Positions 3-64,000 of a DNA stretch of 64,000 bases are shown here, piece after piece. Source of the DNA: Candidatus Omnitrophota bacterium (GTDB lineage Bacteria > Omnitrophota > Gorgyraeia > Gygaellales > Profunditerraquicolaceae); the NCBI GenBank assembly GCA_030693145.1, contig JAUYBI010000041.1, forward strand, positions 10,228-74,227. Direction: 5' to 3'. The notes under the pieces were generated by a model. It was not told the origin of the DNA and ran no database searches. It saw only the letters and a list, made by a program, of their open reading frames with translations. How positions within the stretch are numbered: position 1 is the first letter of the stretch; the number at the start of each line of letters is the position of its first letter. The position numbers and the translations under genes were made by a program.

Positions 3-3000
3 AAAAAGCCGCAATGGGCAGAACAAAAGGGAGTAAAAGAAACTTTGACGCAGTATGTGATCCGACAGGCAATAGAGGAGGCAACCGGTAAAAAGTTAGA
101 AGATGCGGTAATCGAACTAAACAAGCCGATTATCATAGATGAAGAAAAAGGAATCAGCCTTAAGATTTTATCTGTGGCAATGACATATAAGGAGTTTGCA
201 GGCAAAGATGGCGTGATAAAAGAAAAAGCGCATCGTTTAGGCATTATTAAAGAAGATGACGCAAATATAGTTATATCATTACCAAATGAAATCCTGGAGG
301 TTGGTTTTAGCGTGCAGGAAAAGATAGAGGCATTGAAAGCAGTAATAAGCTTTCAAATAAGGAAAGCCAGGTATTTACAAAATACGGGCCTTAGCCTTGA
401 AGACGAAATAAACTACGAGAAGATATTCCTGTCTGAGAATATAGAGTTATTAGAAGGAGACAAATTTGTGCCAAGCAATATGTTAAAGTTGCTAGGACAA
501 GTATCTGCGGCGATATCGATTATCCGGTTTACTAAAAAAACTATCCAAGAAGGTAAGGTGCCGGTTATAGCCAAGGATATGGATGGGACATGGACAGCTG
601 CCGGAACAAAGATGACTCCGGAGATGGCATACTATGCCTGGATTTATTTGAGAAACCATAAAATTATAAAATCAGTGCTTACAGCCCAGATGTTTGAGGG
701 TCCGCTGAAACAGGTATTAGAAGAGGTAATCCAGATAAACAACCGGATCGAGCTTATGGAGACACAAACCGGCATAAAGCAGGGAAAGCACTCTTTAGAG
801 GACCTTTTTAAGACATTTATAATCGGAGCTTCTTCAGGGAACGCGATTTTTGTTTACGATTCAGCTAAACAAGGCCATAAAAAGGTGTTTCAGAATTCAA
901 TGGATATTTTAACCACTAAGATAATTGAATTAGCAGGCAGGTTAACCATGCCGGAAATTCCTTATTCTGCGGAAGGCCACACCATAGAAAAAAGAGAAGC
1001 GGAATTTAAAAAACTGGTTAATGCGCAAGATGATAAATATGAAGTGTTAGGGTATGCTGCGTTGGCAGTTTTAATCTCAGGCCGGCATGATAAGCGCAGG
1101 GATTGTGATTTACCTCCGAGAGCGGAAAAACGCAGGTTGCAGGGGTTATTAATATCTGAGTTGCTAAAAACTCCGGGAGATTTAGTCGGATTATTAGATA
1201 AAATAGCGAAAAAAGAACTAACTGAAAAATGGGAAATTTCGATTAATCTGGGAGAAAAACAGTACTTGCATAGGGTTCGGGAAGACCAGAAAGAGGCGAT
1301 TGTTAGGGGATACGATGAGTTGAGGGAATTATTGAAAAGAGAGGATAAGCAGCCGAGCCAATTAGCGCCCATATATTGCTCGACTCAGCCCGGCGGAGCA
1401 ACGACATTAGATATTTCGCCTACCGGTAAAGGGCAGGGTATCGAGAATACGATTAAGGTTATAAAAAAGGAAAACGGAATTGGCGCTGACCGCCTTAAGA
1501 TAGGATTTATAGGAGATGAGATTTTGGAAGTATTAGTTCCGGGGATAGACATTAAAGTACCGGGCAACGATTATGATGTGGCTGATAGAGCGCTTAAGAA
1601 AGAAGAATTCAACAGCTTAATGGGTTTGATAATGCATGTCGGCCCGCTGGGCAAAGAAATTACAGTATTACCTAACACCTCTACTGCATACAATCCATTA
1701 GGAGTGATGCCGCATGAAGTGAGCAAAATTCTAGCCTATGCTTCAGCGGCAGTCTATAAAGAAGAGGCTTATAAAGAACTTGAGGCCAACGCGGAATATG
1801 TTTTAGCGAAGTTAAAAAAGTTAAACATTTCTCTTTTATCGTTTGGCGTTGAAAAAATAGAAGAACTTAATGAAGGTTCAGCTAAAGAAATTTTACTGGT
1901 AATTTCAAATGATAGGCTAAATACAAAAGATAATGATGATAAATATGACGGGGGAGAAATAATAGAAAAGTCAGAGGTAAAAGTTCATCCTTGCCTGCCG
2001 GGCAAAGTAAAACATGTTATGTTAATTCAGCCGGGTTTTATTTGGCAGATAAATAAACCTACCCGTATGCCTCTGGGATTAATGTATTTGGCCAGCGCTT
2101 TACGAAAGGATTTTTCTAAAGTAGATGTTTCAATAGTTGATATGCCGGCCGAACAGATCGATGTAGATGGATTAATCAGAAAAATTGGCGAAGAAAAACC
2201 CGATGTAATAGGAGTTTCTTTGATTTCTGTCTTCTTTGGAATCGGTAAGGAAATAGCCAGCGCGATAAGAAATAATTATCCGGAAATTCTGCTTGTTACA
2301 GGAGGGCCACATTCTTCCGCATTGCCCGAATACACGTTGCGTAACTCTGATTTTGATGTTGTGGTTATCGGTGAAGGCGAGTTGACTTTTAGCAGGGTTG
2401 TAGAGGCATTTGGTTACGGGAAAAGCTTTAGAGGAATAGACGGGGTTTGTTTTAAAGAAAAAGGCCAAATTATCAGCGGAGGATTTGTTTCCGATAGGCA
2501 TGATATTGAGGAATTACCGATGGCTGCCGAAAGCTTAGATCTGTTACGGTTGGATCGTTATGACGATATATTAGAAGGAGAGTTGGTTTATCCGATTATG
2601 GCGGCCAGAGGGTGTTATCATAGATGCGCCTTTTGTGCGGGCCAAACAGTTTTCCCTCGAGTAAGGAAGCGCAATCCAGAATCGGTGGTTAATGAGATAG
2701 AATTTGTGTATCGTAATTATGGAATTGAAATGTTCCACTTTTTTGATGATACATTTACAGCGGATCAAGAATATGCCAGCAAGATATTTGAACTGATAAT
2801 TAAAAGGGCTTTACCGGTCAGATGGATGGCTATGACGCGCGCAGACGCGATTGTGCGCAAGGTAAAAGAAGACGGAGACTACGGTAAAGAACAGGAATTT
2901 TTGAGGCTTGCTAAAGATTCCGGGTGCACTGGTTTTGCTATTGGAGTGGAGAGCGGTGACGAAGCAATTCTAAAATTAATGAATAAGCACCTCAACCTCG

Positions 3001-64000: not shown

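Follow-up and report, generated by a model that had tools for sequence, protein, structure and literature searches.

Asp-Gly-Gly punctuates a chain of complete enzymes within a 64-kb open reading frame of a Candidatus Omnitrophota bacterium

Giant genes of the Omnitrophota, with up to 147,155 codons, hold the protein size record, and the products of one class of them, the 'multi-enzyme metabolic cluster', have been read as single membrane-anchored proteins (Nielsen and Lui, 2026, bioRxiv 10.64898/2026.06.07.730766). West-Roberts et al. (2023, bioRxiv 10.1101/2023.11.21.568195) had described genes from this phylum with up to 85,804 codons; they reported peptidase domains of the C39 and S8 families from giant genes, with C39 at the N-termini, and noted that cleavage of the products, and the position of any cut, had yet to be established. 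Transmembrane helices and/or a signal peptide are found in 94% of the catalogued Omnitrophota giants. DGG, double-glycine, linker motifs and polyproteins are mentioned neither in these two preprints nor in Seymour et al. (2023). Here, we analyze a stretch of 64,000 nucleotides from a Candidatus Omnitrophota bacterium (assembly GCA_030693145.1, contig JAUYBI010000041.1, positions 10,228 to 74,227 of the forward strand), referred to as the window in the following. The window is occupied by one open reading frame (ORF), in which the tripeptide Asp-Gly-Gly (DGG) stands between complete proteins.

The window resembles the multi-enzyme cluster class and the glycolytic-domain 'Archaeovorins' in being a single ORF of tens of thousands of codons, tiled with many Pfam families (PGM, PGI, hexokinase, radical SAM, methyltransferases, HEAT). 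In contrast to the published work, in which the product is treated as one membrane-anchored protein and no cleavage points are given, the window has junctions that can be placed to the residue and few hydrophobic segments, and it contains neither end of the gene. A second likeness is to viral polyproteins (picornavirus, flavivirus and coronavirus replicase; pp220/pp62 of African swine fever virus, ASFV), which also combine one ORF, many proteins and a short junction peptide whose sequence depends on the lineage. Some viral polyproteins have Gly-Gly at P2-P1, and ASFV pp220/pp62 are cut at Gly-Gly-X. Unlike these, the window stems from a cellular genome, carries a cargo of central metabolism, belongs to a gene that is 5-50 times longer and has no established self-encoded protease. 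Finally, the C39 double-glycine leader processing of bacteriocin/PCAT transporters is alike in its Gly-Gly cleavage site, and C39 domains are reported in Omnitrophota giants. The C39 peptidase family is Gly-Gly-specific. The window differs from this system in that it has no leader-helix hydrophobic positions and no C39, and in that dozens of internal sites would be cut, compared to one N-terminal leader.

The ORF runs on the + strand from nt 3 to nt 63998 (codons starting at 3, 6 and so on) and consists of 21,332 sense codons with 0 TAA, TAG or TGA. This confirms the original prediction, which was made from the letters of the window and had claimed that this frame is uninterrupted and open at both ends and that a computed translation would return zero stops. 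The remaining five frames contain 712-2,294 stops each, and their longest open stretch amounts to 241 amino acids (aa). Since a random codon of this base composition would be a stop in ~7% of cases, a chance origin of the open frame is ruled out. The 64-kb window has a GC content of 38.7% and its coding strand is purine-rich throughout. GC at third codon positions (GC3) is even along the window (0.366 +/- 0.030 in 3-kb blocks), and the sequence contains zero Ns. A marker gene was not found within the window. Matches to more than 30 different Pfam families are spread along the full length of the product, and about three quarters of this length have no family match. The product has almost no tandem repeats and few internal paralogs. 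Only PGI, a PHP module, a HExGH unit and a HEAT-like unit are duplicated within the window, and no enzyme family is dominant by copy number. Hence, the description of the gene as a chain of unrelated enzymes and not a repetitive adhesin was correct. A crude hydropathy scan returned ~10 transmembrane-like segments in the 21,332 aa, the N-terminus of the gene lying outside the window.

Taken at 21,332 codons with both ends outside the window, the frame exceeds the 10,000 codons in a single ORF that mark the giant multi-enzyme genes of Omnitrophota. The window is best explained as 64 kb from the interior of a giant Omnitrophota gene; the frame is open at both ends, and the entire gene is longer than 64 kb. 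A gene of this size, of a rare kind from metagenomic candidate phyla, had been proposed before, and the proposal is borne out by the best homologs, which are Omnitrophota multi-enzyme fusions from a phylum known for giants of up to 147,155 aa. The adjustment to be made is that the giant multi-enzyme class is no longer unknown: because such genes have already been described from Omnitrophota, the ORF belongs to a known kind.

The most informative feature of the product is DGG, since it shows where one complete protein ends and the next begins. In the original prediction it had served merely as a phase check, with 52 copies, all in frame, from nt 1947 to nt 63576. Phase and end points were right, while the count has to be corrected to 53. 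By chance, 5.8 in-frame copies are expected, which corresponds to a 9.2x enrichment. DGG ranked first when all 3- to 5-mers were scanned without bias (corrected p ~1e-28), and the variants DGX, XGG and DXG were not enriched in the product. The sites, given by their first base, are located on the + strand at nt 1947, 7461, 10389, 12525, 12618, 13341, 14925, 15759, 18627, 20163, 21807, 24108, 25908, 25923, 29484, 31308, 32265, 34449, 35802, 37800, 37866, 38607, 39588, 40656, 41976, 42396, 43134, 43209, 44211, 44817, 45537, 45987, 46029, 46581, 47178, 47952, 48738, 50064, 50142, 50334, 50925, 51165, 51903, 52461, 54597, 55524, 56433, 59898, 60069, 61815, 62706, 63111 and 63576. Not one of them falls inside a Pfam match (0/53; P ~7e-7 for random placement). 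The stretches from one DGG to the next have a median length of 284 aa, as in ordinary bacterial proteins. The residue that follows a junction DGG is variable (E, S, K, R, A and others), and the flanks are near-uninformative, with at most 0.65 bit at any position. At the junctions at nt 50334, 50925, 51903 and 54597 we observed a common extended GC-rich string, TCAGCGCGCCTT-GACGGCGG, while the units that end there are not detectably similar. Since ~6 chance copies are expected among the 53, some sites should not be junctions. We judged the DGG at nt 10389 to be one of these; it belongs to a DDGG that is conserved in the CofD/YvcK domain and is shared by the related proteins P0055, P0057, P0059, P0066 and P0067. 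The DGG at nt 42396, which probably lies inside the HUMPS domain, was likewise judged not to be a junction.

Alignments to solved structures placed DGG at native protein termini. The second of two complete glucose-6-phosphate isomerases (PGI-2, nt 29493-31307, also identified by Pfam) was aligned to PDB structures with 120-aa flanks added to the query. The alignment covered residues 4-554 of a solved PGI chain of ~557 residues and ended no more than 3 residues from each flanking DGG. Likewise, the complete eukaryotic-type hexokinase (Hexokinase_1 and Hexokinase_2 in Pfam; nt 34458-35801) aligned with chain residues 6-464 of ~465, within 2-5 residues of both DGGs. Taken together, the alignments of these two enzymes leave 1-5 residues to the neighbouring DGG. 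For the complete phosphoglucomutase/phosphomannomutase (PGM, domains I-IV in Pfam; nt 20172-21806) the PDB alignment begins 3-9 residues past its DGG. From the fits to native termini, the placement of the sites and their uninformative flanks, we therefore conclude that DGG occupies the place of stop codon, spacer and start codon, and that it is the punctuation between complete proteins. The units of PGI, hexokinase and PGM correspond to solved enzymes from end to end, so that complete mature proteins are concatenated in one frame, as in a polyprotein. The short conserved junction peptide expected of a polyprotein is also present and does not occur elsewhere in the product, with the internal DDGG of CofD as the one known exception. 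The cargo is best explained as ~45 complete proteins, mostly enzymes of sugar-phosphate and nucleotide-sugar metabolism, arranged head to tail in one frame.

Homologs of the PGI segment are proteins of 1.3-4 thousand residues, mostly named Candidatus Omnitrophica/Omnitrophota and in part Endomicrobiaceae, and they themselves combine several enzyme families. Two of them, P0003 and P0004, are labelled as rotifer (Rotaria) and carry a C-terminal PGI that is 57% identical to the one in the window, which may reflect contamination of eukaryotic assemblies or horizontal transfer. DGG was not enriched in the first 47 homologs, and this led to the discovery of the motifs of other lineages. PGI boundaries there are formed by R[SA]E[VL]R, SSSP[VM] or D.AM, with the same peptide on both sides of the enzyme within one protein. 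R[SA]E[VLM]R was observed 17 times in P0007 and 9 times in P0023 (0.03 expected in each), SSPV 8 times in P0013 (0.02 expected) and D.AM 7 times in P0009 (0.26 expected). These lineage motifs are enriched 20- to more than 500-fold in their own protein, and none is present in the window. The final residue of SSSP[VM] and of D.AM aligns with the ancestral PGI start codon; thus, these peptides precede the native N-terminus. As controls, Endomicrobiaceae fusions and eukaryotic proteins revealed no over-represented junction motif. The Endomicrobiaceae proteins (PGM-PGI-PGK and similar; P0020-P0043) do contain a homologous PGI fused to glycolytic enzymes in 3-4 thousand residues, and because an over-represented junction peptide is missing they look like ordinary domain fusions.

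An exhaustive HMMER search was performed with unit 8 of the window (nt 15768-18626), a paralog of the PHP-module unit at nt 7470-10022. It recovered relatives with DGG at the same junctions, among them P0054 ('NGK-DGG-VQSEIIDKF'), P0068, P0057 and P0050; both of the DGG junctions that flank unit 8 are kept in relatives (P0054 and P0068). DGG junctions are shared with relatives as distant as ~36% identity. At the unit-8 junction, where P0054 has DGG, P0053 has GTKSFPAG, and the dialects found there comprise GTKSFPAG, GDGDKSFP, DGEKKYPA, KSHPAG and K[AS]SSAG. We also noticed a possible trace of an older motif within the window itself. 'RS' stands at exactly positions -5/-4 before DGG at five sites (RSARL three times, RSTRF and RSDHN; p=7e-7) and is essentially absent at other offsets. 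Furthermore, the junction before the first PGI copy reads 'TRSE-DGG', and the closest PGI relative, P0001 (73% identity), uses RSE[VM]R. It looks as if DGG had been appended directly after an older five-residue RSxxx motif of which relics are kept in the window.

Matching architecture is seen in independent assemblies from NCBI, ENA, JGI and Logan. With the alignment of the PHP module, one locus of SSSP type was recovered from GTDB. This 12-kb contig of a metagenome-assembled genome (CAJVXN010000046.1; L010:2-12055) is a single open frame of 4,018 aa with 13 copies of SSSP and no DGG punctuation, and its GC content of 38.7% equals that of the window. The ENA groundwater contig k127_649975 (L003:665-21317) contains three adjacent polyprotein genes of 3,550, 1,463 and 4,312 aa, which jointly carry PGI, GAPDH, FBPase, TIM, aldolase, iPGM and enolase. 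Thus, chains punctuated by RAELR encode the greater part of glycolysis there. Complete genes of relatives (L003:665, 11817 and 16287; L005:10001 and 16620) start with a positive N-terminus and a conserved hydrophobic helix ('..IIS.vLvFTFIFSN', 'RILSAFIAFTFIFS') that resembles a Sec signal. They end in conserved modules that are specific for the lineage ('...AGALMRA[VI]AA*'; 'GGIDLNPALLDLQIKRDGNG.PLP...'), and these terminal modules had no Pfam or NCBIfam match. We found no stop or start in a relative that coincides with a DGG junction. The sole split is seen in a DGG-type contig from JGI 3300001592 (L007:2-3602), where the PHP module extends across the overlapping ORFs 2-826 and 693-3602 by a frameshift within the module. 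This split stems either from a frameshift error or from pseudogenisation of the unit.

We lean, with modest confidence, toward the explanation that the product is a cellular polyprotein which is proteolytically processed at DGG. The gene would then be an 'operon without stop codons', in which stop codon, intergenic spacer and start codon have been replaced by Asp-Gly-Gly at each boundary. A dedicated endopeptidase would recognise exposed DGG after or during translation and cut there, most simply after Gly-Gly, so that the downstream enzyme would obtain a near-native N-terminus. The individual enzymes would be released in fixed 1:1 amounts from one transcript. We infer this cleavage from what was observed, that is, from the open frame, the enzyme content, the DGG at native termini and the lineage-specific peptides at the same junctions. 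The wider idea is that a large part of the sugar and central metabolism of Omnitrophota is encoded in polyproteins, each lineage with a dialect of the punctuation peptide that is read by a co-evolving processing enzyme; we regard it as slightly less likely than not. According to this idea the dialects (DGG, RAELR/RSEVR, SSSPV, D.AM, GTKSFPAG/GDGDKxFP and KASSAG) would turn over in concert at dozens of sites.

Candidates for the cutting enzyme are the C39 domains at the N-termini of such genes and three paralogous dark units of the window. The latter, unit 5 (nt 12627-13340), unit 7 (nt 14934-15758, with an N-terminal TPR-like helix pair) and unit 22 (nt 38616-39587), have in common an HExGH that does not vary and a Glu further downstream. 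This signature is zincin-like and makes unit 5 and its paralogs candidate zinc metalloproteases. HE..H occurs 4 times compared to 0.39 expected, and the HExGH units were the sole protease-like feature that emerged from active-site regular-expression and Pfam searches of the window. The junction sites, all of them D-G-G, have Gly-Gly at P2-P1 as in C39 leader-type substrates. The window contains no C39 domain, the N-terminus of the gene being outside.

Several observations weigh against processing at DGG. Pfam searches at E<0.5 and at E<10 revealed no protease family in the window. The AlphaFold model of the HExGH units, built from three sequences, is poor (pLDDT 47), and a Foldseek search of this model against PDB returned nothing below E=1; minigluzincins appeared at E=6-10 and were treated as noise. 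A profile of the HExGH units matched none of the other polyproteins examined. With a poor model and no fold match, these units are only a candidate. Upstream of DGG, the hydrophobic pattern of a leader (positions -4, -7 and -12 of an amphipathic helix) is missing, as there is no hydrophobic enrichment. A site of three residues offers little specificity, and cutting at the conserved internal DDGG of CofD would need to be prevented by the fold. Between some enzymes there is no motif at all, and these resemble true multi-domain proteins. The Sec-signal-like start of the relatives' complete genes is odd for enzymes of a cytosolic type. The topologies predicted in both preprints are membrane-anchored or exported and agree poorly with a release of cytosolic enzymes (West-Roberts et al., 2023, 10.1101/2023.11.21.568195; Nielsen and Lui, 2026, 10.64898/2026.06.07.730766), and the published topology predictions put much of the giant proteins outside the cytoplasm (10.64898/2026.06.07.730766).

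The product might instead remain uncut and act as a giant, possibly membrane-anchored scaffold or metabolon whose enzymes function in the tethered state, with DGG as a hinge or as a docking peptide for a partner. We consider this unlikely, but it is the alternative that deserves most attention. In its favour, the products are regarded in both preprints as single, giant proteins associated with the membrane, the window has HEAT-like scaffold units, Gly-Gly is flexible, and no protease was found in the window. A hinge, however, need not be invariant within a lineage and wholly different between lineages, as is the case for the helix-prone RAELR compared to SSSPV and DGG. Moreover, the junctions leave merely 3-10 residues between full-length enzymes such as PGI, and only ~10 hydrophobic segments were counted in 21,332 aa. 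PGI works as a homo-oligomer. It is quite improbable, in our view, that the proteins are separated during translation and without a protease, by 2A-like bond skipping or by termination and resumption without a stop codon. Selection acting on the peptide would suit a nascent-chain signal, and several lineage motifs end rich in Pro or Gly (SSSP, FPAG, HPAG). Against this, these motifs have no common core, and a 2A-like skipping by consensus was rejected since NPGP is missing and D(V/I)ExNPGP is absent at the junctions. We know of no bacterial equivalent of 2A. Frameshift-termination or internal initiation at DGG was rejected as well: out-of-frame stops are not enriched just after DGG, and start codons and Met are depleted directly after it. 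That the continuous frame is an artefact, caused by a chimeric or collapsed assembly or by systematic errors that removed stops, we can hardly believe. Such errors could not keep 45 unrelated genes in phase with one another and at the same time place the junctions precisely at the native termini, the independent assemblies share the architecture, and GC3 is uniform in a sequence free of Ns.

A further alternative is that the signal resides in the nucleic acid, with DGG as a by-product of an RNA-processing site or of a scar or target of cassette recombination. On the + strand the degenerate octamer GAYGGNGG was counted 56 times, of which 53 are in the coding frame; the - strand has a single copy. 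For the exact 8-mer GACGGCGG, 30 copies were found compared to 0.34 expected, without exception on the + strand and in frame, and the raw wobble bias at the first two codons of DGG (GAC and GGC) is strong (p=4e-12 and 1e-8). In a relative, L005:11345-15996, ASSPV is nearly always encoded by the same 15-mer GCCTCCTCGCCGGTG, on the coding strand only (P=0.003 from codon usage), and the RSxxx relics right before DGG suggest that DGG was appended. Still, we hold this explanation to be very improbable. GAC makes up 48% of the Asp codons before Gly codons in this gene and GGC 55% of the Gly codons before Gly. The GAC/GGC preference is thus mostly a general codon-context habit, which is also seen with the same codons at the internal DDGG of CofD, here and in L007, and only a ~2-fold excess of GACGGCGG remains. 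The DGG flanks show no nucleotide conservation, and conservation is confined to the 8-9 nt of the DGG codons. In L003 and L006 the synonymous codons of RAELR/RSEVR vary freely, CGC/AGG and CTG/TTA being among them, which demonstrates selection on the peptide in these lineages. No Rfam families or tRNAs were found in the window, and the local folding energy at DGG sites is the same as at random in-frame positions. An integron-like cassette array was rejected because it would have conserved sites of ~20 bp or more with inverted repeats at the borders, compared to 8-9 nt here, and because folding is as at random positions. Even added together, the separation during translation, the nucleic-acid signal and the artefact amount to a rather improbable set of alternatives, and we retain proteolytic processing at DGG as the explanation toward which we lean.

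The encoded units, all on the + strand, were assigned by family matches along the window. The first unit bounded by DGG on both sides (nt 1956-7460) comprises, according to Pfam, a B12-binding/radical-SAM part, a DegT/DnrJ/EryC1 aminotransferase and a weak GHMP-kinase-like tail. Since DGG is absent between these domains, the unit is probably a true multi-domain protein. It is followed by an APS kinase with a conserved PHP-domain module (nt 7470-10022), which shares 49% identity over ~530 aa with unit 8 (nt 15768-18626). This unit ends at the degenerate junction 'ITK-DGD-KDS' (DGD at nt 10023-10031), where the orthologous junction of P0057 reads 'AE-DGG-KREAL'; DGD instead of DGG may leave the PHP-module unit and the following CofD-like unit permanently fused. 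The CofD/YvcK-like unit (nt 10032-12524; internal DDGG at nt 10386-10397) is 53% identical to P0057, and scans of metagenomes and viral contigs with it came back empty. Two complete PGI copies, at nt 24117-25907 (PGI-1) and 29493-31307, are 78% identical and lie 3.6 kb apart in the same ORF. Between them, a shikimate-DH-like domain, a 6-phosphogluconate dehydrogenase and a 6-phosphogluconolactonase form one unit (nt 25932-29483).

Downstream of PGI-2 we found a methyltransferase unit (nt 31317-32264) and a PRK/uridine-kinase-like domain with an ARMT1-like damage-control phosphatase (nt 32274-34448). The adjoining hexokinase (nt 34458-35801) matched animal hexokinases with very high scores (E=1e-157 for human HK2), and this eukaryotic two-domain type is unusual in bacteria. 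A methyltransferase with a further domain behind it (nt 35811-37799), a histidine phosphatase of branch 1 (nt 37875-38606) and an amidohydrolase (nt 40665-41975) come next, apart from unit 22. The unit at nt 41985-44210 contains an OMPdecase/HUMPS-family domain, a dark stretch and a SIS domain. Judged by the family names, HUMPS and SIS would be the domain pair of the hexulose-phosphate synthase/isomerase pathway. Further downstream are a PEMT-like membrane methyltransferase unit followed by a methyltransferase unit (nt 46590-47951), and a HEAT-like repeat unit followed by a CN-hydrolase-like unit (nt 52470-55523), with both Pfam matches of the latter pair below the cut-off. The remaining ~2,800 aa (nt 55533-63998) consist of 8 DGG-bounded units without family match or detectable homolog. 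A dark region of 3,355 aa had 0 matches among 5.8 billion proteins, and for the tail of the window there were 0 matches in GTDB genomes and JGI metagenomes.

What is new here is a junction motif defined to the residue, which provides the first concrete candidate cut sites for giant proteins, the literature we searched being free of junction motifs. The motif makes the question of cleavage testable on existing data. With it, giant ORFs can also be divided in silico into single proteins, which can then be used to predict structures and to reconstruct metabolism. Should processing be confirmed, these bacteria would apply the polyprotein strategy to the central metabolism of a cell, and site and protease would form a pair that evolves fast. 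The record-size bacterial 'giant proteins' would, if this is true, be precursors of ordinary enzymes, and the way in which the 'largest proteins' are counted would change.

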